Below are positions 825 to 19,600 of a DNA stretch of 64,000 nucleotides, piece after piece. The translations under genes were made by a program, and so were the position numbers. Under the pieces are notes generated by a model, which did not search any database, was not told the origin of the DNA, and worked only from the letters and a program-made list of their open reading frames with translations. Source of the stretch: a virus (Duplodnaviria; Heunggongvirae; Uroviricota; Caudoviricetes); the IMG/VR virus record IMGVR_UViG_3300005613_000041, positions 11,239-75,238 of that record. One strand, 5' to 3'. The stretch's first letter is position 1; each line of letters starts with the position of its first letter.

Positions 825-1187
825 ATGGATTTAGAATCCATGACAGTAGATGAATTAATCAATTCGCCAAATAAAAGGGCTATGGGGAAATATCAAATTA
901 TTCCTAATACTCTTAAAATGTTAAAAACTGAATTAGAATTAACTGGGAATGAAAAATTTGATCGTAATCTTCAAGATTCACTATTTAAACATTTAGCTTA
1001 TAAAAGAGGATATAACGAATATAAATCTGGTGATATAACAGCCGAAGAATTTGCTTATAATCTTTCTAAAGAATGGGCAGCACTTCCTAAAAATTCTTCT
1101 AATGAATCTTATTATGAAGGTCGATTGGGAAATACAGCTCTTATTGGATGGGATAATACACTAGAATTAATCAAAAACTTATTTTAA
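825..1187 (+). CDS. Small SLT-like lytic transglycosylase domain protein
   Basis: 'DLES' catalytic Glu-Ser followed by 'AMGKYQIIPNTL', resembling the SLT consensus GLMQ(I/V)xPxTA; motif-level only. Confidence 0.4.
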   Translation: MDLESMTVDELINSPNKRAMGKYQIIPNTLKMLKTELELTGNEKFDRNLQDSLFKHLAYKRGYNEYKSGDITAEEFAYNLSKEWAALPKNSSNESYYEGRLGNTALIGWDNTLELIKNLF

Positions 1188-1189
1188 AC

Positions 1190-3097: not shown

Positions 3098-3109
3098 AAT
3101 TATTTATAA

Positions 3110-6100
3110 ATGGACAATAAATATACAATACCTGTAAATACTGGGATAGGTGGATATAATATAGACAATGAAACAGTAGCTGAAGTCACTAGACTTATTC
3201 CAAATGCTACAACAGAATCATTAGGATCACCAAATCTTACTATGAGACTTGCTAATGCTCAACCTTGGCAAGAGAAAGCTCTAAAAGGTGGATGGAACTT
3301 TGCTGTTAATGCTCTTGGTATGGGATCAATGATGGTTGGTTCACTTGACCCAAGAATGTTAGTTGGTGCTGTTAGTGATACAGAAAGAACGTATTCAAAT
3401 TTCTTTACTGAATTCGGTAAAGAATTTATGGAACAAAATCTTGCTACTATCTATGAACAAAATCCAGGTAGTGTAAATTTTACAGATCCAGGTTGGTGGT
3501 TTAATAGAATTGGTGATACTGGAGCTATTCTTGGTATTGTTGGTGAGACAGCTTTGGAAACAATTGCTTTAGGTGGTATTGGTAAATTAGCAACAAGTGT
3601 AACAACAGGTGCTAGATTAGCTCGTATTACATCCATGATAAATAAAGTTAGAAATACTAGAAGTTTAGCTACTGGTACATTTGCTTTTTCAGGTATGAGA
3701 GAAGCTGTTCTTGAATCTAACGATGTATTTGAATCAACATACGAAAGTCTTAAAAGATCTGGAATTAATGAGGAAATGGCTAGAGAAAATGCCGCACAAG
3801 CTGCTGCTTTTAGCTTTAGGGCTAATGCTATACCTAAAGCAGTTTTAGGCGCTCTACAGGCTCGTATGATGACTTATTCACCACTTGTAGGACTTAAATC
3901 AGCTGATGTTTTAGATGAAGCACTAAGTAAAATCCAATCACCATTAAAAAGAAATCTAACCAGAATTGGACTTGAAGGTGGTTCTGAAGCTTTTGAAGAA
4001 GGTTATCAGTCAGCTATAAGCGGGTATGCAGCATATAAAGCAGATCTTATGAGTGATCTTACTAATCCATTTGAAGTTAGTAACTATATGAATATGTCAG
4101 ATATATTTAATAGTGCTTTTGTTGGGTTCTTAGGTGGTAGTACTTTAATGCCAGCTGTCGGTGCTGTTATGAATAAAGCTTTAGGTCGTTCTAAAGATCC
4201 TTATAAAGAAATATATGATCAAAATATAACTGCTGGTAATGGTATTAAGCTTGAAATGATGAAAAATCTTTCAGAGGCTATTAAAAATGATGATAAAAAA
4301 ACAATTGACAGAATACAATCTGAATTAAATGGTTATAATGTTCTTGAAGCTATCTGGTTAGATAACGTAGCTGGTAAAGATGATGCATTATATTCAGACT
4401 ACATGAGCTTTTTAGATAACACGTTAAAGAGTATCCAAGAAAACAACAGTGAAGAACTTTCAAAAATTGGCATTGATGAAAATACCAATCTTGAGGATAT
4501 TAAAGGTAGATTCTTAGAATTCAAATCTGATGCAGAATTTATTAAAAGTGTATTCGAACAGGAATCTGAAGAAGCCAATATACATACAATTAAACCAATT
4601 GTAGGTATAAGAGTATCATTAAAACAACTAGATGAAAGAATTGCTGATGAACAATCTGATCTTCAGAAAATAAAAAGTGAAAATGAATCTATTGGTTTAT
4701 CAATTGAACAAAGAATTTTATTTGATTCAGCTACCGAAATAGAAGCTTTAAAATATACTATTTCTGACTTAGAAACTATTTCTAATAGAACTCTTAAACC
4801 AAATGTAAGAAATAAGTATCAAAAAATTATTGAGAATCTAAAAAAAGAATTAACTGAAAAAGTAGAAAATTTTGAAGGAAGGGTTGTCAGAGATAATAAA
4901 TATAAGAAAGCAGTAAATCATGTAGCCCATATAAAATTTTATGAAGCTACTAAAACTATTAAAGGTCAAGAACTAGATGAGTGGAGAGATAGTAAAAAAT
5001 CTAAAGAAAAAGTTAAAGACATGTTTCAATCTTTAGTTGATAATGCTAAAACTAAAGAAAGTGTTGATAACATTAAAGAAGCTGCTCAAGAAACTAATAA
5101 TCCTGAAATAATTGATGCTGTAGAAGAAGCTGCTAGTAATAAAGTTGAAGATACTTCTAATCAAGCTAAAATTAAAACTGTTGAAGAGTTAAATAATAAA
5201 GCTGAAAAAGAAGTAGTTTTTCAAGATCTAAAGAAGGAAGCTGAAAAAGTTGAGAAACAAGAAGCTAAAAAGAAATCAGAAAGTAAAGATCTAAATAAAC
5301 CGATAGTGGTTGATTCAATGGATGATCTTGCTGATGATTATTCTTTTTATCCGGGTGAAAAATCTACATTAGATAAATCTGCTCTAGAAAAAGTTAAATT
5401 TTCTATGAGAAGACTTTCTTATAAGATTAATTCTAGAACTCCTTCATTTAAAGAAGCTATTGAAGAACTTTTAACTGATATCGATTATGATAGAGTTAAA
5501 AGCATTTACCATATTGCTGTAATAGGTTGGGAAGAAAATATTAAAGAAGATCCGAATAGATACAAAAGATCGAATTATCAGGAAATCTATGATAATTTAT
5601 TTAATAGTAATAAAGAAATCATTAGTGAATTAGAAAGTGTTCTTGGTTCTGAAAAAACTGATAAAATTAAAAATAAAAAAGAAGAAACAACTCCACCTAA
5701 ATATATCCTAAAAGGAGCTACTAGTAATTACGAAGGTTCTCAACTTTCTTTTGTGGCTGTTAGAAAAGAACAAATAGTTACAATTGATGAACAAGGTAAT
5801 GTTATAGTCAATTGGGAAAACATAAAGGATGCTTCTATATTTGATAATGAATTTTTATCTAACAGTAAAGATTTAGCTAATCCAGATAAATTTGGTATTG
5901 GAACAGAATTAGAAGCAACTATTCATCCACAACATAAAAAGATTCCAGTCAAACTGTATTTTGATGAACTATTTGATATTGATAGTAACAGTACAGATTT
6001 CAGAAAAGGTGTAAGAATAATTTATTTTGTTAATAATAAAGGAGAAAGAATACACAGAACACCTACTTTTTCTGAATATGAAGAAGGTGTAACAATTACT

Positions 6101-9100
6101 TATGAAAAACCTAGTAGTAGAAAAAATAGTCAAAAAGAAGGTATACAAAGTGAAAGTAAATACATAAAATTTGAAAAAGATAGTGAACTTTATTGGGATT
6201 ATATTCCTATTGTAGTATATGAAAAAGGAAATACACCAAATGATGGATTAGCTTTTTTACATGTACCAAACTGGAATAGTAGATTTACGAAGTCAAATTC
6301 TAGTTTTGACGAAAATGATGCTGGTTATATAGCTGAGGAAGCTTATAAAAGAGATAAACAATCTAGAAGTGCTGTAAGAGAAGCTTATGAAAATAATAAA
6401 GCAGCTACATTTAAAATTACTAAAAAAGGTAGTGGTAGTTATGAACAGTTAAGATTACCAGATGAGAATTATGTTACTTTAAGAGAAGGTTCTAAAGATA
6501 ATAGTCTTTTAGGATTTATATATAAAAACAATAGTATCAATGTTATAAAAGATGGTGAGTTAATTGAAAATGTTACTCCTCAAAGTTCAGATTCTAAAAT
6601 CTATATTGATGCTGAAGATATTACAACGGATTCTTACAATAATAGATTTTTCGAGTTAAGGAAAGTACAAAATATTGAAGGAAAAGATGTTTACTTACCA
6701 TTCTATGTAAAAGAAAAAGACATTACCGAAGAAGAATTTGATTCTATTTTTAATGCTATAAATCTTTATCTAAGTTCTAATAGTAATAGAAAAAAGATTG
6801 ATGAAATTGCATCAAAGTCAAGATTAGATATCTCTACACCACAAGGATTATATGAGTATCTATCATTATTTATTAATGTTAACATGAATCAATCTGATGC
6901 TGTTATTAAAGTAGTTAACTTTGATAAGTCAGGAAAAACTTATGGTGATATAAAAATTGGTAATAAAATATATAAAAAAGGTTCTCTTGTAGACAGAAGT
7001 GTTTTTACTGAAGCTATTAATTCATCAAGAAAAGGATTGATGAGAAGAACTGACTTTAAAGGAATGCTACATGATACTCAAGTTCTTCATATAGATAATA
7101 ACTATGGTATTAAAAGTGTTAATACATATAGTGAATATTTAAAAGATCATTTATTAACTGATATTGTTAATTATAATGTTGGTACTGAGGATAATCCAAT
7201 TTATACTCCGACTATCCAACCAGTAATAGGTATTGTTCCCGAAAGTCAAGTAGATATTAAAACTCCTATAGATATAAAAGATGATTATGTAAAAGAAGTT
7301 AAAGAACAACCTATTGTAAAAGATAATGTTGTAGTTGAAGATCTTTCTGAAAAAGAAGCTAAGATTCAAAAAGCTTTAAATCTTGTAAGTCTTATTGTTT
7401 CTTCTGATGAAAGATTAACTTATCAGATTGGTGATATCAGTCAGTATAATGCTATTTCTATAGGTCCAGAACAAAGATTAGAATACATAAAAGAACTAAA
7501 TTTAATTCCAAATTTACTTCCTTTTGAACAAGAAGAAATAGTAAGTAACATATTTCATCAATTAAATTATCATATTAAAAATAGTGATATTGATAGTTTA
7601 ACAAAAAATGATATTAAAAACATCATTCAAAATATTATAGCTGATGAAGTTGGTTCAAAACTAAATGAAGTAATTGACAGTATTGAAGAGATAACACAAA
7701 TAGCTGATGAATTTGACTTTACAAATCTTTTAAGTGATTTAAATTTAGCTAAAGATAAACTTTCTTCAATTATAGATAATTCAGATAGAATTCTAGATCT
7801 TGTTAATGATAGATTAATATCTATGAAAACTATAGTTGACAAAGAAGAAGATTCTGAACATGTTTATGACAAAGGTAAAGAAGAAGTCAATATGAAAGAT
7901 CAAGCTAGTTTTGAAGTCAGAAAATTCTTTCAAAGCATTATGGACTTGGATAAAGACGGTAATGAAAAAATAGGTTTTCTCGGAATGCCCGTATTTGTAG
8001 ATATGGATAGAGCATTTGATGTGGTAACTTCACTATCAGCAGATCTTGGTTCTAATTATCATTTTATTATTGATAATCTTAAAAAACATCATATTGCTTA
8101 TCCTTGGTTATGGTACGAAGGTAAAGAAGATGAAAGTTCAAGTTCTATAGAAGAAAAAAGATCTAAAACCTTAATTGGAAGAATTGAATCTACAAAAAAT
8201 GGTGATAAACTGTCTTCATTTCAACATCAGTTTGTTTATCTAATGAACAAACACTATACAGAAATGAAAATGATTTTGATTGACAAGTCTAAAGATGAAA
8301 ATCTAAAGGTGTATGATACTAATTCTTTATCAGCCAAAAGAGCATTGGTTAACGAATGGCATAATAATATTAAAACTTCTAATCTTGTAACTTATACTAA
8401 TGATAGAGAATATGTTTTTGTTAAAGAAGAAGCTCAAAAATTACTAGATGAATTTAAAAGTTTATTTAAAACACCTAGTAGTAGAGAGATTAATTCATTA
8501 TTTAATGAAGATATAGAATCTTTAGAAGAAGGAACTTTTGAAATCAAGGGTAAACGTTTCATGGAATTAAAAAAAGCCATGAAGAATAGTAATTCAGATA
8601 GATATCTTATTAATGCCAGAGGTAATAAAAATTTCTTAGCTGTTAGAAATGATAATAATACTGTTACATTAAGTAGAGTCGAAGGAACACATGATATTGA
8701 TAGTGTTCATGAATGGACTAAGAAATTTGGTATTCCACTTTCTAAAGAATATATACAAGAATTATTCAACAAAGGTGTAACAACTTATGATAAGAAGTCT
8801 AGAAAAAAGGTAAATAAAAAGTTTAAGGAATTATTTAATTATAATACTAAAGCAAATTCTTATGGTGGTATTTTTGGTTATTTAGCTTTAGAACTTGAAA
8901 AAATAGTTGCTTCTGAGAAACCTATGTTTTTTGGTATTGGAAAAGATATATCTTTAAATAACTATTTAATTTTAAAAACAGCTCAGGAAGAAGCTAAGTA
9001 TACTCCTGCTAAAATTATTACATCTTGGAGAGATGGTAAAAAAACTATTTATGGTTACACAGCTACGAATTTTATAACTGATAGAGTTAGAGGTTTGAAA

Positions 9101-12100
9101 AATGGTAATTCTATCAAGATGTTAAGAAAAGCATCATTTAATAGTCAGTCTGAAATACTAAATAAGCTTGAAAATAATTCTTCATTTAGAAAAGCTTTTA
9201 ATTCATTTATTCCGGGTAAAACATTACTTAAACAGATTGGTTCTAAACCATTTGGAGAAAATGATTTATCGAGTCTTTCTGATGGTGATCATGAATATGC
9301 TAAGATCGGATTTTTCCAAAGTGTTCAGGGTAAAGAACTTAATTCTCCAATTAAAGTTACTGTAGATGATAGTACTATCAAGTTACCTACAAGAATGACT
9401 AATATGTTTGGACTTACTATGTCTGATAAAACAGCTATGGAAATTTTTAATACATTAGCTTTAGATTTACATGACATTGATTTTGACATTGATGAAAATA
9501 ATATCAGTATTAAAGAACATATAGCAGAATTTCTTTATCAACAAGTAGTAAAACCTGAATTACTTAGAGTTGATGAATTCTTTAGAGCACCAAAATATAA
9601 TATTAAAGGTTACAATGGTGGACAATTTTATTTAGTTCCATCTATTAACAAGTTAGAATTTGAATATGATGGTAAGACTCATGTTCTAATTGACTATTTA
9701 AAAGATAACAAGTTAACAGAAGATGTAGAAAAAGTTATTCAACCATTAATACGTTCTGAAGTTAAAAGATTAGTTTCTCATTTAGTAGAAAAAAAATTAG
9801 ATTCTTGGAAAGCCACAAACATCATTGAGGATAAAGATCATAATTTAAACAAGAAATATCTTGAAAAGTTTAGAGATAAAAAAGTTGAACTTGCAACATT
9901 TGATTATGTTATAAATTATATGTGGCATAATGCAGAAATGTTTAAACTTTTTGCTGGTGATCCTGCTAATTACTTCAAATTAGATAGTAAAAATTTAAAA
10001 CAAAAATCAGTAATTGATTGGACTTCTGAAGATTATATTAAAGCATCCAAAGAAACATTTATTAATGTTGGTAAGAGACTTGCTTTACTAAGTGCTCCCG
10101 GAAATAAATTATCAAATAGTGAAGGTGATTCATATATCCAATTATTTATTGAAGACAATGAATCAAAAGCTTATATGTATGAAAAACTAAAAGAAGAATT
10201 TGGTGATGAAATAGCTAAGCATTACTTATCAGCTAATGAGACTGATGCTCAGGAATATACTACATGGGAAGAACATCTTGATATTCTTACTCGAATGGGA
10301 AGAATGCAAGATTCTCTAATAGATATTACTGTTGATGATATTGAAATAGCTCGTACTATATTTAGTAAAGTAAAAGATTTATCAAAACTTTCTGTTAGAG
10401 AAAGATCTGCACTTACTAAAGTATTACAACCTATCAAACCAGTATATACTGGACAAATGTATGATAGTAAACATGATATAGTAAGAACTGTTTATGTAAA
10501 ATCTTCTAGTTTTCCATTAATTCCACAACTTACAAAAGGAATGGAACTTGATAAGTTAAGAGAATTGATGACTCATATTCAAGAAACTAAAGGTATGAAA
10601 GTTAGAGCTTCTTACCAATCTGCTAATAAAGTTGGAGCTGTTAAAAATCCTATTAATCTTGTTGATATAAACAGTGAGGAATATAGATTTAATGATATTT
10701 TAGGAAGTATCAAAGATAATCAAGAAGCATTGGATAAATTACTTAGTGACAGTTCATTAGTACTTAACAGAGATAATTTTAGAATCCAGCAAGATGTTCC
10801 TTACAAATCTGCTAAAAATAAACATGAAATTACTCAAGGTACACAGCTAGCTAAGTTAATATTAGGAGATGGTGTATTAGAGCTTACTGATTTTGAAAAT
10901 GGTAGAGATGGTAAACAAATCTATACAGCTTATAAAGAAATCTATAATGACATTTATGAAAATAGATTGGCATTATTAAATCTAGATTTCAGTACTGTAG
11001 AATCATTACAAGAAGTACTTTATGCTGAAGCTGATGAAAGAGGTTATACATCACAAGATAAAAAATATCTTGAATTAGATAATGGTGGTAACTTTAAAAT
11101 TTCACCTGCTTATGCTCCTAATGCTGATAAATTTGAAGCATTACTTCAATCTATTATTAATAAGAGAGTAATAAAGCTTAAAATACCTGGTTATTCATTC
11201 GTAGTAGGATCAGAAGCTGGTATTGTAACTAAAACAATAGATGAGTTAAAAGATAACGATAAAAATAACATTGTATGGATAGACGAACCTATCACAGGAA
11301 GAAAACTTGATTCTCATGAAATATTAATTCCTTCTAAATTAGTTCATCCAAGAACAGGTAAGTTAATTGATTTATTAAATGATGGATATGCTGAAATAGC
11401 AAAAAATTCTAATGGTAAAACTTATTGGAAGTTAAATAAAGAAATGGTAGATGAAGATTTATTAAAAGTAATATCATTTCGTATTCCAACATCAAAACAT
11501 AGCTCTATGTCACTTGATAAAATTGTTGGATTTTTACCAGTTGAGTCTGGTGATCTTATGATTGTGTCAAGTGCTAAAACAATTATGAAAGGACTTGATT
11601 TTGATGTTGATAAAGAAAATACTTATTCATTTTATACTGACTTTGATGAAAATGAAGTATTAAAACCTGTTCATAAGATTGCATCTTACAATAAAGAAAA
11701 ACTATTGGAAGAATTACAATCTGAAAAAGATAATGATAAGATTAAAGAGATAAGAGAAAAATTACACAAAGTAAACATTAATGAACTCATTAGTATACAA
11801 AGAGAAGTTCTTAATCATCCTAAAGTTCATGAAAAAACACTTGAAGTTCTTGATACTAATGATATAGAAACTCAGGCTAATATATTTGATGAATTAATAA
11901 ATAAAGATGATTCTAACTTTACACCATTGTCTGACGAGTATCAGAAACAAAAAATGTTGACAGGTGCTTCTGGTAAGTTAGGTACTGCTATTTACTCGAA
12001 TGATGTTACATTCAATAGTATTATTCAGCAATTGTACTTAGATAATCCTGATTCAACTATTTATAGAGCTTTAGGACACATAAACATTGGTGGTATCGCA

Positions 12101-15100
12101 AGTAATCAATATCTTGGTGCTTTATATAGTGTAAATGGAGAAAGAACTATTACTGATATCTTATCTGAAAGACAAAATGCTTCTGTAGATAATGAAAAAT
12201 TACAGGTTTTAGGAAAACTTAATCTTAATCAATATACTATGGCTACTGACCGAGCACTTATATTTTTAGGATTAGACAAAGGTGAAAAAGTAGTACATAA
12301 TGGAAAAACAATAGATAACATTTCATTCTTTATACTTAACCAACCTATCATTAGAGAATTCGTATTTGAAATGGAGAAAGCATCTTCTCAATTAGGAGGA
12401 TGGAGTTCTGATGTTCAGTCAGAAGTTGTAAATAATTTAAACATAAGATATACAGTTGATGAGAAAGATGTAAAATATAAAAGTGAAGATTTAACTAATT
12501 CCATATTGTATAAAGAACTATCTGAGAAACCTACAAATGCTATTCAATTGGCTGTATTAGATACATTCTTGGAATTAAAGAAAATTGGTGAAGATATTTC
12601 TGTATTAGAAGGAAGAATTAATCTTGATAGTAAAGGATTAGGTAAATCCTTATTTGATACAATTAATTCTACAGATAAGTTTTATAAATTAAAAAAACTA
12701 TCAGAAAATGATGAATTTTCATTTACTAATGTTGAAAGATTATATCAGACTATTCAAGCTAACATAACAGATATTGGTTTAAAAGCGTCAAGTAAATGGT
12801 TAAAACATTATCCTTATCAGACTGAATTCCTTCTTGATACAGTTGCTGATTTAGAACAGATATTATATCCTTTTGAGGATGATACTAGAAATTTATCTAC
12901 TGAAAGAAAACAAGAATTATTTAAAGAATTCAAAAAGTTTTTAAATAGTGGTAGTACTTCTTTGTTTATAGAAAAAGATGTTAATAAAGAAAGATATAGA
13001 TTGAGTGTTGATAAGAATGAAAAAGTATCTTTAGCAAAATATTTAAGAGATTTAATAGAAAGTGATAAATATTCATCAATTAATAAAAATAAATTACTAA
13101 CTGCTTTAAATTTTGAAATAGAAACTAATGGTAATTATTCATTAATAAAATTTGATAATGCTTCAGGTGAAGCTTTTGGAGAAGATACTCTTAAAAATGC
13201 TTTTGTTGAACTATTATCTGTAGATATTGAATTACCTGATTTTAACGGTATGAAATATTCTACAAATAAATTAGCACAAGATCTTATTTCTTACTCTTTC
13301 TTAGAAGGTGGTATTCAAGAAGCTACTCAATTTGTTAAATTTATACCATTTACCTATTTGGAACAATCTGGATATATTGATCATATCAACTATATTGATA
13401 GTAGATTGAGAAATTCAGATAATGTAGATGAATTTTTTGAAGTACTAGGTGAGAATAAAATAAATAAATTTATTAGACAATATATTCGTCATAATCCAGA
13501 AATATTACCTAAGATCAAAGTTGATGATAGTCAACTAAGAGATTTAAGAAATAATATTTCTATTCAAATACCTTATGATAAAATACCAGAGAATGCTACT
13601 TACATAGCCGTATATGATAAAAATATAAAGTCAGAAAAGAAAAAGCATCATTTATTATATGTTAATTATGAAAGAAGTACTTTAGATCCTATTAGTCAAT
13701 TAGGTAGTCAATTTATGAGTGAATATGATATGAATAGTGAAGTGTTAGATCCACAATCAGTAATTAGACATTCTGGTGATCTAACAGAAAGTGATACTGT
13801 TAATGTTGTATTTGAAAATGATGATTGGAGATTGTTATCTAATTTTGCTTATAGTCCAATTAAAGATCCAAAATTGAAAGGTACAGAATTCAAATCAGTC
13901 GAACAGGCTTTTCAATATCATAAAGCTATTATAGCATTAAAACAAGCTAAACTTGCTGGTAATCAAGAGGTAATAGAACTTATTAAAAAAGTTGGTAGTC
14001 AAATTATAAACGAAAGTAATGGTTATAAACTAAAATCTCTTGGAAAAGAAATTGTATTTATCAATATAAAAGAATGGGATGAAAAGAAAGTTGATATCAT
14101 GAGACATCTTCTTAAATTGAAATTTGATACAAATGGGTTTGCTAAGAAGAAGTTACTTGAAACTGGTAGTGCTATTATTACTCATGAACTGAAAAATAAA
14201 GATGAATGGACAAAAGAATTTCCTAAATTACTAACAGAACTTAGAGATATTTATAAAGGAAAAAGTATTCCAGTCAAAGATGACAGTAAAACATCTAATG
14301 TTAGTTCTGGTATTGAATACAAAATAGTACTATTCAATAGTAAGAATGTTAATGAAGTACTTGATCATATTGTCAATGATAATAAAGTAGAAAGAGGTTT
14401 AATTGAATTAGCTAAATGGTTAAAGACAATAAAAAATCAACCTAATGTAAAATTTTCAACAGAAGAAGGATATGGTGCTACTTATGACGATAATACTAAA
14501 ACCATATCTATAGGAAGAGATCTTTTAGACTTAACAGATGATACTTTCATTCCTAATACAATTGATTTGACTTTACAAAATAATATTGCCAGATTAATTC
14601 TTCATGAATATATTCATGCTATTACGATACCTGAATTAAAAAAATATGAGAATAATTATGAAAATGCTCCTACATATGTTAAAAATCTATTAAGTGTATT
14701 TGAAAAAGCTCAAAAATTAGCTGATCCTGAACTGATGGAGTCTATGAAGAAAAAAATAGATAATAAACGTAGAAATAAACCTTCAGAAAAGTTTATAAAT
14801 GAAGAACTTATAGAGTATGGATTGGTTGATAAATTTGAATTTATTACTGAGCTTCTTACTAATAAGAAATTTATGGAAAAACTTAATGTTGTTCCAGAAG
14901 GTACATCATTCTTAACAAACTTAAAAGATTTCTTCAAATCTATACTTGAAGCATTTGGTATAAGAGTTAAAAATAATAGTCTACTTGAAGAAGGTGTAGA
15001 AGCTATTACTCAACTAATAGAAAATGCTAATTTCACTACAGAAAATGTATTACCTTGGAAAGCTGAAGTTGATAAAAAACAGCAAATAGATCAAAACTAT

Positions 15101-15193
15101 TCTGTAACTAATCGTGACTTTTCTAGTACACAGAGTGAAATTGATCAATTAAAATCTACATTTAAAGATGCAGATGGAAAAACAATATGTTAA
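3110..15193 (+). CDS. Giant 4027-aa virion protein, crAss-like virion RNAP-type: DxDxD double-psi-beta-barrel motif, C-terminal NADAR-like domain and HExxH zincin peptidase motif
   Basis: Uninterrupted 12-kb ORF; 'GLDFDVDKEN' (~11590-11620) matches the catalytic DxDxD of crAss-like virion RNAPs; NADAR/YbiA-like block 'FENDDWRLLSNFAYSP...EQAFQYHKA...KLKF...LLETG...EWTKEF' (~13800-14230); 'LILHEYIHAI' HExxH (~14600). Confidence 0.7.
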   Translation: MDNKYTIPVNTGIGGYNIDNETVAEVTRLIPNATTESLGSPNLTMRLANAQPWQEKALKGGWNFAVNALGMGSMMVGSLDPRMLVGAVSDTERTYSNFFTEFGKEFMEQNLATIYEQNPGSVNFTDPGWWFNRIGDTGAILGIVGETALETIALGGIGKLATSVTTGARLARITSMINKVRNTRSLATGTFAFSGMREAVLESNDVFESTYESLKRSGINEEMARENAAQAAAFSFRANAIPKAVLGALQARMMTYSPLVGLKSADVLDEALSKIQSPLKRNLTRIGLEGGSEAFEEGYQSAISGYAAYKADLMSDLTNPFEVSNYMNMSDIFNSAFVGFLGGSTLMPAVGAVMNKALGRSKDPYKEIYDQNITAGNGIKLEMMKNLSEAIKNDDKKTIDRIQSELNGYNVLEAIWLDNVAGKDDALYSDYMSFLDNTLKSIQENNSEELSKIGIDENTNLEDIKGRFLEFKSDAEFIKSVFEQESEEANIHTIKPIVGIRVSLKQLDERIADEQSDLQKIKSENESIGLSIEQRILFDSATEIEALKYTISDLETISNRTLKPNVRNKYQKIIENLKKELTEKVENFEGRVVRDNKYKKAVNHVAHIKFYEATKTIKGQELDEWRDSKKSKEKVKDMFQSLVDNAKTKESVDNIKEAAQETNNPEIIDAVEEAASNKVEDTSNQAKIKTVEELNNKAEKEVVFQDLKKEAEKVEKQEAKKKSESKDLNKPIVVDSMDDLADDYSFYPGEKSTLDKSALEKVKFSMRRLSYKINSRTPSFKEAIEELLTDIDYDRVKSIYHIAVIGWEENIKEDPNRYKRSNYQEIYDNLFNSNKEIISELESVLGSEKTDKIKNKKEETTPPKYILKGATSNYEGSQLSFVAVRKEQIVTIDEQGNVIVNWENIKDASIFDNEFLSNSKDLANPDKFGIGTELEATIHPQHKKIPVKLYFDELFDIDSNSTDFRKGVRIIYFVNNKGERIHRTPTFSEYEEGVTITYEKPSSRKNSQKEGIQSESKYIKFEKDSELYWDYIPIVVYEKGNTPNDGLAFLHVPNWNSRFTKSNSSFDENDAGYIAEEAYKRDKQSRSAVREAYENNKAATFKITKKGSGSYEQLRLPDENYVTLREGSKDNSLLGFIYKNNSINVIKDGELIENVTPQSSDSKIYIDAEDITTDSYNNRFFELRKVQNIEGKDVYLPFYVKEKDITEEEFDSIFNAINLYLSSNSNRKKIDEIASKSRLDISTPQGLYEYLSLFINVNMNQSDAVIKVVNFDKSGKTYGDIKIGNKIYKKGSLVDRSVFTEAINSSRKGLMRRTDFKGMLHDTQVLHIDNNYGIKSVNTYSEYLKDHLLTDIVNYNVGTEDNPIYTPTIQPVIGIVPESQVDIKTPIDIKDDYVKEVKEQPIVKDNVVVEDLSEKEAKIQKALNLVSLIVSSDERLTYQIGDISQYNAISIGPEQRLEYIKELNLIPNLLPFEQEEIVSNIFHQLNYHIKNSDIDSLTKNDIKNIIQNIIADEVGSKLNEVIDSIEEITQIADEFDFTNLLSDLNLAKDKLSSIIDNSDRILDLVNDRLISMKTIVDKEEDSEHVYDKGKEEVNMKDQASFEVRKFFQSIMDLDKDGNEKIGFLGMPVFVDMDRAFDVVTSLSADLGSNYHFIIDNLKKHHIAYPWLWYEGKEDESSSSIEEKRSKTLIGRIESTKNGDKLSSFQHQFVYLMNKHYTEMKMILIDKSKDENLKVYDTNSLSAKRALVNEWHNNIKTSNLVTYTNDREYVFVKEEAQKLLDEFKSLFKTPSSREINSLFNEDIESLEEGTFEIKGKRFMELKKAMKNSNSDRYLINARGNKNFLAVRNDNNTVTLSRVEGTHDIDSVHEWTKKFGIPLSKEYIQELFNKGVTTYDKKSRKKVNKKFKELFNYNTKANSYGGIFGYLALELEKIVASEKPMFFGIGKDISLNNYLILKTAQEEAKYTPAKIITSWRDGKKTIYGYTATNFITDRVRGLKNGNSIKMLRKASFNSQSEILNKLENNSSFRKAFNSFIPGKTLLKQIGSKPFGENDLSSLSDGDHEYAKIGFFQSVQGKELNSPIKVTVDDSTIKLPTRMTNMFGLTMSDKTAMEIFNTLALDLHDIDFDIDENNISIKEHIAEFLYQQVVKPELLRVDEFFRAPKYNIKGYNGGQFYLVPSINKLEFEYDGKTHVLIDYLKDNKLTEDVEKVIQPLIRSEVKRLVSHLVEKKLDSWKATNIIEDKDHNLNKKYLEKFRDKKVELATFDYVINYMWHNAEMFKLFAGDPANYFKLDSKNLKQKSVIDWTSEDYIKASKETFINVGKRLALLSAPGNKLSNSEGDSYIQLFIEDNESKAYMYEKLKEEFGDEIAKHYLSANETDAQEYTTWEEHLDILTRMGRMQDSLIDITVDDIEIARTIFSKVKDLSKLSVRERSALTKVLQPIKPVYTGQMYDSKHDIVRTVYVKSSSFPLIPQLTKGMELDKLRELMTHIQETKGMKVRASYQSANKVGAVKNPINLVDINSEEYRFNDILGSIKDNQEALDKLLSDSSLVLNRDNFRIQQDVPYKSAKNKHEITQGTQLAKLILGDGVLELTDFENGRDGKQIYTAYKEIYNDIYENRLALLNLDFSTVESLQEVLYAEADERGYTSQDKKYLELDNGGNFKISPAYAPNADKFEALLQSIINKRVIKLKIPGYSFVVGSEAGIVTKTIDELKDNDKNNIVWIDEPITGRKLDSHEILIPSKLVHPRTGKLIDLLNDGYAEIAKNSNGKTYWKLNKEMVDEDLLKVISFRIPTSKHSSMSLDKIVGFLPVESGDLMIVSSAKTIMKGLDFDVDKENTYSFYTDFDENEVLKPVHKIASYNKEKLLEELQSEKDNDKIKEIREKLHKVNINELISIQREVLNHPKVHEKTLEVLDTNDIETQANIFDELINKDDSNFTPLSDEYQKQKMLTGASGKLGTAIYSNDVTFNSIIQQLYLDNPDSTIYRALGHINIGGIASNQYLGALYSVNGERTITDILSERQNASVDNEKLQVLGKLNLNQYTMATDRALIFLGLDKGEKVVHNGKTIDNISFFILNQPIIREFVFEMEKASSQLGGWSSDVQSEVVNNLNIRYTVDEKDVKYKSEDLTNSILYKELSEKPTNAIQLAVLDTFLELKKIGEDISVLEGRINLDSKGLGKSLFDTINSTDKFYKLKKLSENDEFSFTNVERLYQTIQANITDIGLKASSKWLKHYPYQTEFLLDTVADLEQILYPFEDDTRNLSTERKQELFKEFKKFLNSGSTSLFIEKDVNKERYRLSVDKNEKVSLAKYLRDLIESDKYSSINKNKLLTALNFEIETNGNYSLIKFDNASGEAFGEDTLKNAFVELLSVDIELPDFNGMKYSTNKLAQDLISYSFLEGGIQEATQFVKFIPFTYLEQSGYIDHINYIDSRLRNSDNVDEFFEVLGENKINKFIRQYIRHNPEILPKIKVDDSQLRDLRNNISIQIPYDKIPENATYIAVYDKNIKSEKKKHHLLYVNYERSTLDPISQLGSQFMSEYDMNSEVLDPQSVIRHSGDLTESDTVNVVFENDDWRLLSNFAYSPIKDPKLKGTEFKSVEQAFQYHKAIIALKQAKLAGNQEVIELIKKVGSQIINESNGYKLKSLGKEIVFINIKEWDEKKVDIMRHLLKLKFDTNGFAKKKLLETGSAIITHELKNKDEWTKEFPKLLTELRDIYKGKSIPVKDDSKTSNVSSGIEYKIVLFNSKNVNEVLDHIVNDNKVERGLIELAKWLKTIKNQPNVKFSTEEGYGATYDDNTKTISIGRDLLDLTDDTFIPNTIDLTLQNNIARLILHEYIHAITIPELKKYENNYENAPTYVKNLLSVFEKAQKLADPELMESMKKKIDNKRRNKPSEKFINEELIEYGLVDKFEFITELLTNKKFMEKLNVVPEGTSFLTNLKDFFKSILEAFGIRVKNNSLLEEGVEAITQLIENANFTTENVLPWKAEVDKKQQIDQNYSVTNRDFSSTQSEIDQLKSTFKDADGKTIC

Positions 15194-15196
15194 AAT

Positions 15197-18100
15197 ATGG
15201 ACTGTAATTTAATACCTACAGTAGAAATTGAGGGTGCTAAAGTTCCTAGTGCCCTCTTTACTACTTTACAACAATATAGTAACAATAGAGAGGAAGCAAA
15301 GAATCTTTATTTGTATACTAAAACTAAAGAATTCCAATCTTGGAACCCAAAATTAGATAATTTTGGAGAAGCCATCGTTGAATATTATAACGAAGAACCT
15401 GTTTTTATAAATATTAATGATGAAGTAAAACCGTTATTTGAAAAATATTATTCTCCAGATGTAATTAGAGTTACTGCTGAACAGTATGAACAAGCTACAG
15501 GTGATTTTTTATTTGGAGAAATTCCTAAGAAACAATTTTCTAAACTTCTACAACAAAAACAGAATGTAGCTAAAAGTCTTCATCAAATAATTAATTTATC
15601 AAAAGCTGACACACCTAAAGAAATTACCAAAGTAGAAACTGCTAAAAGACTACTGTATGGTACTAAAAATGAAAAAGGTCTAGAAAGAGAAATAGCAGAG
15701 TTGACTTCAGATATCGAAGTTAAGAATGTTATTGATTATGCTACTCATACATTAAATCAAATTAGATCTCTAGTTGATGTTGGTGATTTTGATTCAGATA
15801 CATTAGCATTAGAATTAGCCAACTTTCTAGAAAGAGCTGGTTCATTTATTGATATGAGTCAGAATCCTTTGTTTGAAGAAGATGAACTTGCAAACATGAA
15901 TGAACAAGAAAAAAGTATTCTAGCAGATTTAGCTTTTCAAGCTTCTAATATAGTAAGTAGTGTGAAAATACAAAGTGCTAAAAACATTTATGAAAGAATT
16001 ATAGATGACCCTACTATATCAAAAAAGATTGATAAGAAAAAACTTACAGAAGATTATGTATTTTCTTCAAGTGGACTTAAAGATATTAGTTTATTTGATG
16101 AATATCTCATAGACCCTGCTAGTATTACTTTTGGAGAAACTAGTCCTTTAGGTCAAGTAATGAAGATTACTCTTGAAAATGCTTTTAATAGATCTAGAGG
16201 TGAAGTTAATTTTTTTGAAGAAAGATTAAATAATTTATTACCAACAGTAGAAAAAACTATCAGTTCATTAGAAGATGGAAAATACCAACTAGGATCTATG
16301 GGTATTCAAAGTAAAGGTGTTGTTTGGGATATATTTTATGAAACAGACGATAATGGTAAAAAAACAGGTAATTTAGTAAACAGATATTCTAGTAAATGGT
16401 TTGACGAATTCAAACACAATCAGTATTTAACCAATAAAAAAATAATGAACATTTGGTCTACTGATGGTACTAATAAATCTGGTAGAGTTAATGCAGCTTT
16501 AAATGAACAAAGAAAATGGATAAAAAATAATTCTATCATTCTCGATTTTACAGCTGTATCACAGATAATGGAGTATATTAATAATCATCCTGTTCTTAAA
16601 GAATTAAATATTCAAGCTGCTGAAGAAGAAGTTAATAAAGATACACTGAATATTACTGATAAACATTTTGAAGAGATTGTAGAAGAACAGATAAAATTAT
16701 TAGAAGAATATGCTAATAAATATGATGCTGTTTTGAAAGCTGAACTCATTAAAGAAGAAGTAGAATCATTTGATGATCTGTCAAGAGAAGGAAAAACTGC
16801 TATCCAAGAGTGGATTCTAAAATATTCACCAATGAATGGTTATTCGAATTTTGTATTAGATACAGCAGCAGAACTTGAAAAAGTTGAAAGTGATGAAAAA
16901 TCATATGTAGTATTTAATACATTTGATTATAATGTCAAAATACCAAGAAAGATAAAAAGTAGATTAGAAACAAGAAATGGAAAATCAGTTGAAATTAAAA
17001 AAGAAACCAACTATTACAATGATAAATTTAACTTGATTGAACAACACGATGACTTGTATCAATTTAGAAATTTAGCAAATGAGATTTTAACTTATGTAAA
17101 TTCAGCTTTACCAACAAGTGCTAAACATACATTATCTCATAATGCTATTCCATTACTACATAAGAATCTTAGTGAGATAATGTTTGATCCTAAAATAGAT
17201 TTTTTTGCTAAATTAACTAATATTAGAAGATATTTGTATGATTATTTAAGAAAAATGCTAACTATTGATGAACCTGACAGTGTAACGAAATCTACTCTGA
17301 ATCCTTTAACAGGTGAACCTGAAAAAAGAGTTAATGATTCATTTTTAAGATCAAACAAGAAAGATATTAGTATTAGATTTAATGTTGAAAAAGCTAAATT
17401 CAATTCACTATCAGATAATACCTCAGTGGTAATAAAAGATAGATATACTGTAGCATTTTATGAAACTTTGTCTCAAGAACAATTAACAATGTTGAGAGAT
17501 CGCTTGAATTTCAATTTTAAAAATAAAAATGAACTTTATGAAAGATTAGGATTAGAAGTAAAAGAAAAAATTCCAGTTGGGAAAATACTTTATAATTATT
17601 CAACTGATTATATTATAGACAATAGAAGTTATAATCTTCACAAATCATTATTACTATTTACTCAAGCTGCTGCTGATTATAAGGCTAGATCTGAAGTCAA
17701 GCCATTTATTGATGTAGTTATGGAAAAATTTAAAGAAATTAAAAAAATTGAAACAGGCAGGACAAATGAAGAAAAAATAAATGAATCTATATCTGGTACA
17801 AATATTATTGCTCATGGGTCTCGTAAAAAAGATGTATCAAGATATGAATCTTGGTATGATAGAGTTGTATTAGGAAATTATCAAGGTAAAGATGTTGGTG
17901 TTACAGATAAAAAAATTTATTCTCATGAAGAGAAGTTACTTTTAAAAGAGTTAAATAATTTAGAAGGAGATGATATTGAAATTCTTAAAAAACAAATAGG
18001 AACAAATCTAACAGCCACTAGATTTTGGCAAGCTCTCCTTACTTTTATAAGAATGAAAGCTTTAGGTTGGAACTTACCAGCTTCTTTAACTAACCTGATG

Positions 18101-19600
18101 GAAGGTCAGATTTCTAATGAATTGTTAGCACAAACAGAAGAATTTTTTAGTCTTGATAATTGGTATAAAGCTACAAACATCTATGCGTATGGATCAAAAG
18201 AAGATAAAAAGAAGATGAAAGTTCTTATGAACAAGTTTGATATTCTTCAAGATTCTAGTAATATGTTCCAAAAAGCTGAAATTAAATCAGCTTTAAGTAA
18301 ATTAAATAAGTTAAGTCCATTTCAATTTACAAGAACTGTAGAATGGTTTAACCAATCACCTTTAATGGTAGCTCTTTTAATGGAAGAAAAAATTAAAGAT
18401 TCAGAAGGTAACGAAGTTTCTTTATGGAATGCTTTTGATGAAAATGGTCACTTAAAAAAGGGGTTCAGCCAAGGTGAATTTGGAGAACAAAATATTCAAA
18501 ATTGGGAAAAACTTGATGGACCTGATTATAATAACTATAAGAATAAACAGATTAAAGTTATTGTAAAACATCATGGTGACTATGATGCTAATAGAGGTAT
18601 CAAAATAAAAGAAACTTATACTGGTAAATCATTACTTATGTTTAAAGGTTGGTTACCAATGTATATTAATAAATTTTTTGCTGATCAACATCTGGATTTT
18701 GAAACTGGTAAAACAATTAAAGGATATTATCGTTCACAAACAAGATCTTCTGGAAGTTTATCAGGATTTCTTATTGGTATGACAGTAGGTGGTTTACCTA
18801 TGGGAGCATTTTTAGGATTAGCTGGTTATGGGCTAGGTGTTTTAAATAAAGTTGATTCAGATACAAATTATTTTCAAACTCTACTAATAGATAGTAAATC
18901 ATTAGTTAAAAAATTATATGGTATTCCTTTAAATAGATTAGCTGGTAAAAAAATTGCTAATACATCTACATATCAAGAATATAAAGATTTAGGTTTTACA
19001 GAATTAGATGCTAGAAACTTACAAGCTAATTTATCACAAATGAGTGTTTTACTTACATTTGTGTTAATGTCTATGATAGTCAAAGCTGCTTTATGGGATG
19101 ATGAAGATGATAAAGACAGCAGTAGAAGAAAAGCTCATAACTTACTGATGAACAAATTAGGAAATCTTATTGGTCAAATAACAATGTATACACAACCTCA
19201 AGATTTTTGGAATGACATGGTTGTTCAGAATGGTGTTATTAAAACGATAAGTGATGTTTTTGATGTAGCTGGTGATGTTAGCGGATATATACAAGGTATA
19301 GATACATATTCTGGAGGTTATAGATCAGGAGAATCAAAATTAGCTACTTCATTCTCAAGAGCGTTCTTACCAGTACCAGCCAAAATGATTATCAATCAAG
19401 ACTTCTCATTCGGTTTTGATGCTTATATGAAAAGACAATTTGAAACAAATTGGATTGATTATGAATTTTCTCCAAGAGAAGAAAAACTTAAAGAAATAGC
19501 CAGAAGCAAAAGATCAAAAAGAAGAAAAGAATTATTAGATGAAGGTTTAACACCAAAAGAAGCTAATAAAATTCTTCGAAAAGAAGGCTTATACGATTAA
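15197..19600 (+). CDS. Large 1467-aa virion protein, candidate ejection/cargo or tape-measure-like protein
   Basis: 4.4-kb ORF immediately after the giant gene; Gly-rich hydrophobic segments near the C-terminus (GFLIGMTVGGLPMGAFLGLAGYGLGVL); basic C-terminal tail. Confidence 0.55.
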   Translation: MDCNLIPTVEIEGAKVPSALFTTLQQYSNNREEAKNLYLYTKTKEFQSWNPKLDNFGEAIVEYYNEEPVFININDEVKPLFEKYYSPDVIRVTAEQYEQATGDFLFGEIPKKQFSKLLQQKQNVAKSLHQIINLSKADTPKEITKVETAKRLLYGTKNEKGLEREIAELTSDIEVKNVIDYATHTLNQIRSLVDVGDFDSDTLALELANFLERAGSFIDMSQNPLFEEDELANMNEQEKSILADLAFQASNIVSSVKIQSAKNIYERIIDDPTISKKIDKKKLTEDYVFSSSGLKDISLFDEYLIDPASITFGETSPLGQVMKITLENAFNRSRGEVNFFEERLNNLLPTVEKTISSLEDGKYQLGSMGIQSKGVVWDIFYETDDNGKKTGNLVNRYSSKWFDEFKHNQYLTNKKIMNIWSTDGTNKSGRVNAALNEQRKWIKNNSIILDFTAVSQIMEYINNHPVLKELNIQAAEEEVNKDTLNITDKHFEEIVEEQIKLLEEYANKYDAVLKAELIKEEVESFDDLSREGKTAIQEWILKYSPMNGYSNFVLDTAAELEKVESDEKSYVVFNTFDYNVKIPRKIKSRLETRNGKSVEIKKETNYYNDKFNLIEQHDDLYQFRNLANEILTYVNSALPTSAKHTLSHNAIPLLHKNLSEIMFDPKIDFFAKLTNIRRYLYDYLRKMLTIDEPDSVTKSTLNPLTGEPEKRVNDSFLRSNKKDISIRFNVEKAKFNSLSDNTSVVIKDRYTVAFYETLSQEQLTMLRDRLNFNFKNKNELYERLGLEVKEKIPVGKILYNYSTDYIIDNRSYNLHKSLLLFTQAAADYKARSEVKPFIDVVMEKFKEIKKIETGRTNEEKINESISGTNIIAHGSRKKDVSRYESWYDRVVLGNYQGKDVGVTDKKIYSHEEKLLLKELNNLEGDDIEILKKQIGTNLTATRFWQALLTFIRMKALGWNLPASLTNLMEGQISNELLAQTEEFFSLDNWYKATNIYAYGSKEDKKKMKVLMNKFDILQDSSNMFQKAEIKSALSKLNKLSPFQFTRTVEWFNQSPLMVALLMEEKIKDSEGNEVSLWNAFDENGHLKKGFSQGEFGEQNIQNWEKLDGPDYNNYKNKQIKVIVKHHGDYDANRGIKIKETYTGKSLLMFKGWLPMYINKFFADQHLDFETGKTIKGYYRSQTRSSGSLSGFLIGMTVGGLPMGAFLGLAGYGLGVLNKVDSDTNYFQTLLIDSKSLVKKLYGIPLNRLAGKKIANTSTYQEYKDLGFTELDARNLQANLSQMSVLLTFVLMSMIVKAALWDDEDDKDSSRRKAHNLLMNKLGNLIGQITMYTQPQDFWNDMVVQNGVIKTISDVFDVAGDVSGYIQGIDTYSGGYRSGESKLATSFSRAFLPVPAKMIINQDFSFGFDAYMKRQFETNWIDYEFSPREEKLKEIARSKRSKRRKELLDEGLTPKEANKILRKEGLYD

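Follow-up and report, generated by a model that had tools for sequence, protein, structure and literature searches.

The 64,000-nucleotide stretch of viral DNA analysed here (hereafter, the window) encodes a giant protein that, according to a preliminary description of the locus, combines a virion-type RNA polymerase (vRNAP) with a NADAR domain and a zincin peptidase. Are these assignments sound, and what would an ADP-ribose-removing enzyme and a peptidase do on such a polymerase? The overall reading is supported by sequence profiles, an AF2 model and conserved residues. The open reading frame and its polymerase part are delimited as follows.

3110..15193, plus strand: giant ORF, 4027 aa (ORF list and translation)
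9800..12400 (aa ~2231-3097), plus strand: two-barrel RNAP core region, homologous to phi14:2 gp66 (profile against the PDB, tblastn)
11597..11611, plus strand: DFDVD, predicted metal-binding catalytic motif of the RNAP, aa 2830-2834 (codons read directly)

Judged by its sequence, the 4027-aa ORF is a polyvalent protein of the crAss-like virion RNA polymerase type, and the source of the window is a crAss-like phage. A five-sequence profile of the core (A4, aa ~2231-3097) matches the PDB chain 6vr4_A, 'DNA-dependent RNA polymerase', in two stretches with an E-value of 8.4e-29; phmmer with the whole giant protein against the PDB missed 6VR4, and the five-sequence profile was required. The tblastn matches of the core include the Flavobacterium phages FpV4/FPSV (36% identity), phi14:2 g066 and the crAss001 RNAP. 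The DFDVD motif, which had been placed at ~11590 and taken as support for vRNAP identity, is indeed aligned by the 6VR4 match with the catalytic DFDID (GSDFDIDK) of that structure, and DFDxD is common to all crAss-like vRNAPs (preprint 10.1101/2020.03.07.982082). Possession of both the two-barrel core and DFDxD places the protein in the phi14:2 gp66 family. In its entirety, the giant ORF corresponds to phi14:2 g067-like and g066-like regions fused to the first part of a g065-like region, and is matched by PHROG 16227, 'virion structural protein', at 1e-149. A near-identical 4027-aa protein is present in ENA/JGI metagenomes. Among cultured phages, FpV4/FPSV of Flavobacterium psychrophilum are the nearest relatives; no close DNA relative was detected by megablast against phage records. 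The gene order of one related locus (L010) is that of the window, with the crAss Ring/MUZ genes followed by the giant gene, a gene for a ~1600-aa protein and dUTPase/RNR.

We infer that the giant protein travels inside the capsid and is ejected together with the DNA, because its orthologues (phi14:2 gp66 and crAss001 gp47/49/50) have been identified by mass spectrometry as virion proteins that are packed and ejected, and because of the annotation of FpV4 gp32 and the depletion of cysteine described below. The phi14:2 gp67-gp66-gp65 and crAss001 gp47/gp50/gp49 blocks share with the window the RNAP core (6VR4) and the terminal-cysteine pattern; phi14:2 gp65 contains the same zincin module at aa 165-380, and crAss001 gp47 has an HExxH at aa 2157, ~184 aa from the C-terminus and thus at a distance similar to that in the window, a likeness of motif only. 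These blocks differ from the window in being split into three proteins, the first two of which are fused in the window along with the zincin part of the third, and there is no NADAR in their proteins.

The NADAR features of the giant protein are the following.

13796..14254, plus strand: NADAR (DUF1768/YbiA-fold) domain, aa ~3563-3715 (Pfam, AF2 model, Foldseek)
13901..13924, plus strand: predicted catalytic Glu3598 and Lys3605 of the NADAR, within VEQAFQYHK (alignments A5, A7)
14183..14185, plus strand: His3692 in the last beta-strand (IITHE), the phage-type residue of the NADAR (alignments A5, A7)

The match to NADAR is well beyond chance. At 54.7 bits (E 1.9e-14, aa 3572-3700), the sequence clears the gathering cut-off of 35.1 for Pfam family PF08719, PHROG 1017 matches the region at 8e-20, and every motif that had been quoted for the NADAR/YbiA (DUF1768) pattern inside the giant ORF is found, namely, NFAYSP at aa 3578 (nt 13841), EQAFQYHKA at aa 3598, KLKF at aa 3669, LLETG at aa 3682 and EWTKEF at aa 3699. 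The AF2 model of the domain (pLDDT 86.3, pTM 0.79) is predicted to have the core helices and small flanking sheets of the YbiA fold, and in Foldseek comparisons the modelled structure resembles NADAR in complex with ADP-ribose (8bau, E 1.6e-5, TM 0.58) and YbiA (2b3w, E 5.5e-5, TM 0.62-0.70), both with probability 1.00. Of the two predicted catalytic residues, E3598 is invariant and K3605 is at least 90% conserved in alignments A5 and A7, T4 gp30.3/AdfN included; they are the counterparts of E88 and K95 of the E. coli C7 NADAR, the catalytic Glu and the phosphate-binding Lys, respectively, both of which are essential (PMC11543638). H3692 is invariant in the same alignments, which comprise T4 gp30.3/AdfN and 35 PF08010/PF08719 proteins; it aligns with the Glu of YbiA LVEHT and stands where DarG1 / BC4488 has Asp, a His variant known from the phage gp30.3 NADARs (PMC11543638, PMC11125620). 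These comparisons establish aa ~3563-3715 as a NADAR-fold domain that keeps the catalytic Glu, the Lys and the phage-type His. Thus, the profile similarity to NADAR/YbiA and the catalytic residues, the two features on which the preliminary description had made its case depend, are both present, as is the agreement of the predicted structure with solved NADAR and YbiA structures.

The last-strand residue also bears on the identity of the domain. A YbiA-type metabolic N-glycosidase, an auxiliary metabolic enzyme for damage control of riboflavin intermediates, would be in keeping with the match of the modelled fold to E. coli YbiA and with a weak similarity to TIGR02464 ('riboflavin biosynthesis intermediates N-glycosidase'); however, the 47.2 bits of this similarity are far under the curated cut-off of 73.7, the YbiA-defining Glu is replaced by His, and there is no evident reason for a metabolic enzyme to reside inside an injected polymerase, as relatives of the domain do at 33 of 34 related loci. 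We consider this role extremely improbable, and the YbiA identity as such is rejected on the score and the His-for-Glu replacement. Identity with the DarT1-associated antitoxin (DarG1) is rejected as well, the NADAR being internal to a virion protein, the flanking block proteins having no family matches, and the residue in question being His, not Asp.

Comparison of the linkers of related giant proteins identifies the NADAR as a lineage-specific insertion of ~165-200 aa before the conserved C-terminal peptidase module. The insertion separates the RNAP-associated region from the peptidase module and sits in a linker of 201 aa in the window (3545-3745) versus 36 aa in FpV4 gp32 (3953-3988), and there is no NADAR at the corresponding site in the relatives L003, L004, L005 and L007. 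The closest relatives (FpV4, L003-L008) lack any NADAR, so that the domain is dispensable. Among the IMG/VR relatives of the window NADAR, 33 of 34 lie within giant ORFs, where their position varies, and DFDxD is also present in at least 22 of these 33 ORFs; selection therefore keeps the NADAR on injected proteins. The same NADAR subfamily is found in giant proteins of the transcription/ejection block of uncultured human/macaque gut crAss-like phages, cr126_1 (QOR59539.1, 'DUF1768 domain-containing protein') and cr131_1 (gp48), with 28-31% identity to the window domain in alignment A5 and 35% for cr126_1 in A6. Like the window protein, the NADAR-containing ORF of cr126_1 includes DFDxD and ends with a C-terminal Cys. 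The two phages come from other families (Steigviridae and Suoliviridae), the cr126_1 giant has no HExxH, and the NADAR is N-terminal in cr126_1 (aa ~54-215), in the middle of the protein in cr131_1 and 312 aa from the C-terminus in the window.

Among the closest known counterparts is phage T4 gp30.3/AdfN (anti-DarT factor NADAR; PF08010, Phage_30_3), which shares with the window domain the NADAR fold, the Glu and Lys, the last-strand His and a phage origin, hydrolyses guanine-ADP-ribose and defeats DarTG1 (PMC11125620, PMC11825919). The two differ in that AdfN is a free protein of ~150 aa expressed after infection, whereas the window domain forms an inner part of an injected polymerase of 4027 aa. 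They share only 19% identity, and the Pfam family matched by the window domain is PF08719, not PF08010.

On these grounds, we propose that the giant protein is an injected, polyvalent two-barrel vRNAP in which the NADAR would strip host-placed ADP-ribose from phage DNA or another nucleic acid and the peptidase would cut the giant protein or its partners, a joint reading of the sequence evidence that we regard as moderately probable. The combination of NADAR and zincin is probably a counter-defence delivered with the DNA. Packaged in the capsid and ejected with the phage DNA, the giant would bring the NADAR into the cell ahead of any phage gene expression. There, the NADAR would most likely remove ADP-ribose from guanines of phage DNA, or another nucleic-acid adduct, placed by a host transferase of the DarT1 type, so that the attached polymerase could still use the template. 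That NADARs reverse guanine ADP-ribosylation of DNA, as the preliminary description held, is documented by their guanine-ADP-ribose hydrolase activity (PMC11543638, PMC11125620), and its suggestion that a virion-delivered copy pre-empts DarT-type or other ADP-ribosylating defences is retained here, by inference, as the most likely role. In support of this role, T4 AdfN defeats DarTG1 in vivo (PMC11825919), in this case as a free early protein, and packaging of NADAR, Macro and Nudix domains in virions has been proposed (PMC9503650). Against it stands the dispensability of the domain, which the closest relatives lack. Moreover, guanine-ADP-ribose is hydrolysed in vitro by both T4 AdfN and YbiA, but in E. 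coli AdfN depends on further phage factors and YbiA does not protect (PMC11125620, PMC11825919), so that activity in vitro is no guarantee of a role in vivo.

The substrate could also be of a different kind. Phage NADARs have been argued to act more likely on soluble ADP-ribose derivatives (Iyer et al. 2022, PMC9503650), and the window NADAR might, on entry, destroy soluble ADP-ribose-derived molecules of host immunity, such as NAD-derived signals or toxic ADP-ribose derivatives, with no DNA repair involved. Consistent with this, the same survey describes a tendency of phage Macro, NADAR and Nudix domains to counter such derivatives from within the virion, and the window domain keeps the ADP-ribose-binding Glu/Lys pair, its model matching an ADP-ribose-bound structure. 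Nevertheless, we find this rather unlikely: all NADARs tested so far, the His-type T4 protein included, hydrolyse guanine-ADP-ribose on DNA, the NADAR literature cited here documents no activity on a signalling nucleotide, and a permanent tether to a DNA-bound polymerase better fits a nucleic-acid substrate. The physical fusion to an RNA polymerase would equally suit a NADAR that strips ADP-ribose from the early transcripts of the attached polymerase or from the polymerase protein, and NADARs and other hydrolases are reported to reverse ADP-ribosylation of RNA and of cytidine (PMC11833690, PMC12945103). This variant is clearly improbable, DNA having been the assay substrate for the closest characterised relatives and no sequence feature discriminating between RNA and DNA as the substrate.

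The third part of the giant protein is the peptidase.

14348..15034, plus strand: zincin-like metallopeptidase (MPTase) module, aa ~3747-3975
14603..14617, plus strand: HEYIH, with H3832, E3833 and H3836 as predicted zinc ligands and general base (invariant in A2/A3; codons read directly)
14816..14839, plus strand: Y3903 ... E3910-F3911 (YGLVDKFEF), columns Y166, E173 and F174 of the tail alignment, each invariant or nearly so

An HExxH motif after the NADAR block is present as described previously (LILHEYIHAI, aa 3829), but 128 aa from EWTKEF instead of ~100, and the interval 13800-14660 given for the whole feature, while enclosing the NADAR and the HExxH, cuts the peptidase module, which extends to ~nt 15034 in an ORF that ends at 15193. 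In the sense of the published definition of zincin MPTases (PMC5512222), the module has the HExxH and a Glu on the following helix: H3832, E3833 and H3836 are invariant, and E3910, nearly invariant and located on the second helix, is predicted to supply the third zinc ligand in a gluzincin arrangement. An HExxH could arise by chance in 4027 aa, yet this one is invariant across the homologues of the module, so that the module is genuine, and the conserved pattern establishes aa ~3747-3975 as a zincin-like metallopeptidase module. An HMMER scan retrieved 60 homologues of the HExxH module among 1.84 billion representatives. The zincin profile reaches the N4 vRNAP C1 domain, ejection proteins and minigluzincins (profile A2 against the N4 vRNAP chains, E 2e-6 to 6e-6, residues 2143-2269), and there are SprT-like sub-threshold matches in 13 of 31 module members; with the window zincin sequence alone, Pfam matches are absent or sub-threshold. 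Word-indexed homologue searches with the tail (C-terminal) and NADAR-region queries, and the first IMG/VR scan with the C-terminal 527 aa of the giant, yielded zero matches, the homologues of both regions being recovered only by the exhaustive HMMER scan and profile queries. In the predicted tail model, considered for a possible 'cysteine switch' with the C-terminal Cys near the HExxH site, the DSSP string has no more than isolated bridges (tail residues 192, 220, 282 and 288), and these lie apart from the active-site sheet.

The module is homologous to those of phi14:2 gp65, N4 vRNAP and the ejection proteins of T7-like phages. N4 gp50 (C1 sub-domain, aa 2124-2375) and N4-like polyvalent vRNAPs resemble the window protein in being giant, virion-packaged and cysteine-poor, with a subsequent HExxH zincin-like module (profile E ~2e-6; PMC5512222, PMC13434306); the N4-like versions can bear extra effector domains, such as ART, RNase or lysozyme. 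Unlike the window protein, N4 gp50 contains a T7-like single-subunit polymerase unrelated to the two-barrel crAss type, has no NADAR, and has zero cysteines (PMC11445570) versus one in the window giant. The minigluzincins (projannalysin 4JIX, proabylysin 4JIU, selecase 4QHF) are archaeal, free-standing proteins of ~105 aa whose likeness to the window module is limited to fold and motif (~20% identity); the phage module has about double their length and additional helices between its two ligand helices.

The peptidase would most likely cut the giant protein or its partners after ejection, freeing or activating parts. Autoprocessing by MPTases is a proposed theme of polyvalent proteins (PMC5512222), and the zincin domain of phi14:2 gp65 has been proposed to activate the RNAP (preprint 10.1101/2020.03.07.982082). 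Almost as likely as processing is a role in the ejection complex limited to structural zinc binding: the HExxH module might have been inherited with the ejection machinery and contain no working protease, leaving the NADAR as the sole enzymatic accessory in the region, which we treat as a serious possibility. The N4 vRNAP, with the homologous module in its C1 domain, is packaged unprocessed (PMC5512222), and the module also occurs, without reported proteolysis, in tetrameric ejection proteins of T7-like phages, including PhiM1 gp48, as well as in a 1337-aa internal virion protein; the PhiM1 paper makes no mention of protease activity. However, the general-base Glu, the third-ligand Glu and the Tyr are invariant or nearly so in 31-33 divergent sequences with ~20% mean identity, a conservation not expected of a purely structural metal site. 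Thus, of the earlier suggestion of a self-processing or host-targeting protease, processing of the giant or its partners is favoured, and the structural role stands close beside it.

Both kinds of accessory domain are already known in phages, and the arrangement in the window contains nothing of a new kind. Publications of 2017-2021 describe zincin modules on virion RNAPs, packaging of NADARs in virions was put forward in 2022, and defeat of DarTG1 by phage NADARs was demonstrated in 2025; a crAss-like giant protein with a 'DUF1768' annotation is on record, and literature searches found no paper describing a NADAR/DUF1768 fusion in crAss-like phages. In this arrangement, the first phage protein that makes contact with the injected DNA carries an enzyme for removing ADP-ribose, and this in the group that is the most abundant among Bacteroidota phages of the gut and the sea. 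If the NADAR is active, some crAss-like phages arrive pre-armed against defences that ADP-ribosylate DNA. Together, the window and the related loci show the giant 'transcription' proteins to be platforms for counter-defence domains, which have been grafted on repeatedly and at different positions.

Finally, the end of the giant protein and the start of the next one carry the following features.

15188..15190, plus strand: Cys4027, the last residue and sole cysteine of the giant protein (codon read directly)
15197..19600, plus strand: downstream 1467-aa protein of the same block, the sole cysteine of which is residue 3 (codon 15203-15205)

Cysteine is depleted here (2 in 6464 aa, versus 1.36% elsewhere in the window), as has been reported for the ejection proteins of Schitoviridae (PMC11445570). 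The pieces of the block are nearly free of cysteine except 1-9 residues from the ends that abut another piece: a Cys is found within the last 8 residues in 51 of 57 homologues, and the junction pattern, a C-terminal Cys followed by an N-terminal Cys, recurs in 18 of 19 non-redundant junctions. Tentatively, disulfides or a shared metal site between terminal cysteines could link the block proteins head-to-tail into one ordered chain that passes through the tail and dissolves in the reducing cytoplasm, with the giant as a link whose C4027 pairs with Cys3 of the next protein. The pattern may explain how separately encoded pieces stay together, and in order, during ejection. Coupling at the nucleotide or translational level is ruled out as the cause of the terminal cysteines by L004, where a gap of 10-11 nt and a change of frame precede the downstream gene, and by crAss001, which keeps the Cys pair even though gp47 is encoded on the strand opposite gp50. 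The pair occurs only at breaks between polypeptides, being absent inside fused versions of the block and present in the fission variant L003.

The giant protein had been described from sequence as a virion RNA polymerase (vRNAP) carrying a NADAR-like domain and an HExxH zincin near its C-terminus, and all motifs quoted in that preliminary description were found at their places in the 4027-aa ORF. The relevant features of the window are:

1-19600, plus strand: block of five ORFs
825-1187: 120-aa ORF upstream of the block
3110-15193, plus strand: giant ORF, 4027 aa, with the NADAR/HExxH finding close to its end
11597-11611, plus strand: DFDVD motif, codons read directly
14603-14617, plus strand: HEYIH motif, codons read directly
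3' of the plus-strand block, minus strand: replication and nucleotide-metabolism block (dUTPase, LAGLIDADG-interrupted ribonucleotide reductase (RNR), thymidylate synthase, exonuclease)
21031-21831, minus strand: LAGLIDADG homing-endonuclease ORF, within 21031-23351
46547-47344: ORF with an Lcl_C domain, in a high-G+C segment
49351-50151: SPFH/Band 7 protein, in the same segment
52342-61472, minus strand: tRNA gene cluster, 22 genes by ARAGORN and 23 by Rfam, with most amino acids represented

The vRNAP identity is sound because it is backed by profile matches, by relatives and by gene order. The protein matches PHROG 16227 ('virion structural protein') at 1e-149, and a profile of aa ~2231-3097, built from the window sequence and four IMG/VR relatives, has a sole match among solved structures, 6VR4 (phi14:2 gp66, a crAss-like vRNAP; E 8.4e-29), in which GSDFDIDK aligns with GLDFDVDKE of the window. 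In tblastn, the closest cultured relatives are FpV4/FPSV-group phages of Flavobacterium psychrophilum (36% identity), followed by phi14:2 g066 and crAss001-type polymerases. The distant relative P0005 (locus L010) shares the gene order of the window, behind the crAss Ring and muzzle genes. A near-twin protein in ENA and JGI metagenome assemblies differs at only 6 of the 4027 residues. By analogy with orthologues detected in virions, we infer that the giant protein is packaged and ejected. Near its N-terminus (window 3110-4200) lie two glycine-rich hydrophobic segments, aa 139-158 (AILGIVGETALETIALGGIG) and aa 335-354 (SAFVGFLGGSTLMPAVGAVM), reminiscent of the membrane-inserting helices described in the N-terminal parts of N4-like vRNAPs.

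The proposed NADAR/YbiA similarity was upheld by both profile search and structure prediction. The region scores 54.7 bits against Pfam PF08719 (gathering cut-off 35.1); compared directly with solved chains, it matches weakly (8bau, E 0.012; YbiA, E 0.035). Modelling with AF2 on an alignment including 35 PF08010/PF08719 proteins gave a confident fold (pLDDT 86.3, pTM 0.79), for which Foldseek returns significant matches only to the ADP-ribose-bound Phytophthora NADAR and E. coli YbiA. In alignments that took in T4 gp30.3 (AdfN), two crAss-like giant proteins and many free phage NADARs, E3598, Q3602, H3692, E3703-F3704 and R3712 are invariant, and K3605 is at least 90% conserved. The conserved Glu and Lys are the catalytic and phosphate-binding residues; at the last-strand position, YbiA has Glu, DarT1-linked antitoxins have Asp and phage gp30.3 proteins have His (Schuller et al. 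2023; Cihlova et al. 2024; PMC11543638, PMC11125620). Given the retention of E3598, K3605 and H3692, the window NADAR is thus, as judged from its sequence, of the His-type, that is, phage-type, with the predicted active site intact. A reading as the riboflavin-pathway equivalog was rejected (47 bits vs a cut-off of 73.7).

By alignment, this NADAR is an insertion, spanning 201 residues in the window (3545-3745) vs 36 in FpV4 gp32; the related loci L003, L004, L005 and L007 have no NADAR and retain both its flanks and the C-terminal module. Among phage records, tblastn located the same NADAR type in cr131_1 gp48 and in a 2402-aa protein of cr126_1 annotated 'DUF1768 domain-containing protein', so that the fusion is already present in GenBank. 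A pattern scan of IMG/VR yielded 34 loci, in 33 of which (4 counted under TAG recoding) the NADAR lies within an ORF of 705 to >4200 aa, with DFDxD in the same ORF in at least 22. Since its seed sequences were crAss-type, the scan speaks for this NADAR subfamily, which is almost confined to giant proteins, and not for phage NADARs in general; NADAR profile searches return mainly free proteins of ~150 aa. The position of the domain varies: N-terminal vicinity, mid-protein, or 170-890 aa before the C-terminus. In P0005 it is C-terminal to the peptidase module and itself split by an insert. This 5531-aa protein (L010 10001-26596), in which the RNAP and zincin module are followed by the split NADAR, a PIF1/RecD-type helicase, further domains and a terminal Cys, illustrates the extent of domain accretion in crAss-like giant proteins. 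The homologs P0004 and P0018 contain a short Gly-rich block. The NADAR-bearing crAss-like loci L002, L012, L037, L042 and L045 yield long ORFs only with TAG as a sense codon, consistent with the stop-codon recoding described in some crAss-like phages.

The zincin, too, is borne out as a predicted domain, with a conserved HExxH and E3910 and profile matches to zincins. A word-indexed homolog search with the tail found nothing; an exhaustive scan retrieved 60 proteins among 1.84 billion representatives, mostly with the module close to the C-terminus of 1400-5500-aa proteins. In 31-33 sequences whose columns average ~20% identity, H3832, E3833, H3836 and two Phe never vary, and T3839, Y3903 and E3910 vary rarely or not at all; the residue pattern of H3832/E3833/H3836 with E3910 is a gluzincin arrangement. 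The module profile matches phi14:2 gp65 aa 165-380 (E 6e-24), the 1337-aa internal virion protein 9sfn (2e-15), the tetrameric ejection protein PhiM1 gp48 (4e-7), N4 vRNAP residues 2143-2269 (about 2e-6) and projannalysin (1.3e-4), then selecase, myroilysin, Spartan, botulinum toxin and IrrE; 13/31 members give sub-threshold SprT-like matches. In the AF2 model (pLDDT 77, pTM 0.70), the HExxH helix comes after a sheet of three strands. N4 vRNAP region 2130-2448 has already been unified with zincins (Iyer et al. 2017, PMC5512222) and is the C1 sub-domain in a 2026 N4 structure paper (PMC13434306). The module might function in processing after ejection or might have a structural role; both readings are kept because N4 vRNAP is packaged intact (PMC5512222).

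The RNAP, NADAR and zincin domains are all recognizable, with their predicted catalytic residues conserved. If the giant protein enters the cell along with the DNA, the NADAR would be in place before transcription of the phage begins. Acting like AdfN, it would probably strip ADP-ribose from guanine in single-stranded DNA that a DarT1-type toxin has modified, and tethering to the polymerase would position it at the transcription bubble. Alternatively, its substrate could be a soluble ADPr-derived molecule (PMC9503650), or RNA or protein. For every single element of the arrangement there is a precedent: virion RNAPs and crAss-like partners with zincin modules (PMC5512222; 10.1101/2020.03.07.982082), virion-packaged NADARs as a concept (PMC9503650), phage NADAR counter-defence (PMC11825919) and, for the fusion, the GenBank annotation in cr126_1. 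Our literature search found no paper on NADAR in crAss-like polymerases.

The plus-strand block contains 2 cysteines in 6464 residues vs 1.36% in the minus-strand ORFs, in keeping with reported suppression of cysteine in ejection proteins (PMC11445570). The sole Cys of the giant is its last residue (codon 15188-15190), and that of the next protein is residue 3 (15203-15205). Among non-redundant junctions of consecutive large block proteins (window, L003-L008, L010, L013-L036, L046-L049, with phi14:2 and crAss001 included), the upstream protein has a Cys in its last 10 residues in 18/19 and the downstream one in its first 8 in 19/19 (both ends in 18/19, with the downstream Cys at residues 3-6); the background in other ORFs of these loci is 6.1% and 4.8%, respectively. 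Apart from these residues, the proteins concerned contain almost no cysteine. In phi14:2, the only cysteines of the three proteins are g067 C1797 (last residue), g066 C3 and C2179, and g065 C3. In crAss001, where the pattern persists with gp47 on the opposite strand, gp47 has a single Cys (residue 2339 of 2341), gp50 has C5 and C2404, and gp49 only C5. The L003 fission variant has a Cys pair at its break (about window aa 1340), a position without such a pair in the fused window protein. We found no mention of this pattern in the cited literature; the simplest idea is a putative head-to-tail disulfide or shared metal site. The block behaves like one polyprotein cut at differing places in each phage: the window giant joins phi14:2 g067, g066 and the zincin part of g065, and in crAss001 the putative zincin module, recognized by its HExxH motif, is at the end of gp47. 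Boundaries also shift among other lineages (window 3110-15193 vs L003 1080-7100 and 7100-15697; L047, L048).

The 120-aa ORF, which matches internal parts of endolysin and tail-lysozyme PHROGs (1e-12 to 1e-9) and no Pfam family, may be a small cell-wall hydrolase belonging to the ejection set. Adjoining the LAGLIDADG ORF, a TTG-initiated ORF of 439 aa matches solely the C-terminal part of RNR large-subunit profiles; therefore, the RNR gene seems to be interrupted by an intron or intein-type element (21031-23351, minus strand). Interspersed with the tRNA genes are small ORFs and a gene for an HNH endonuclease (52445-52945). The segment 46001-50000, with a G+C of 0.37-0.43 vs ~0.28 elsewhere, may be a recent acquisition.
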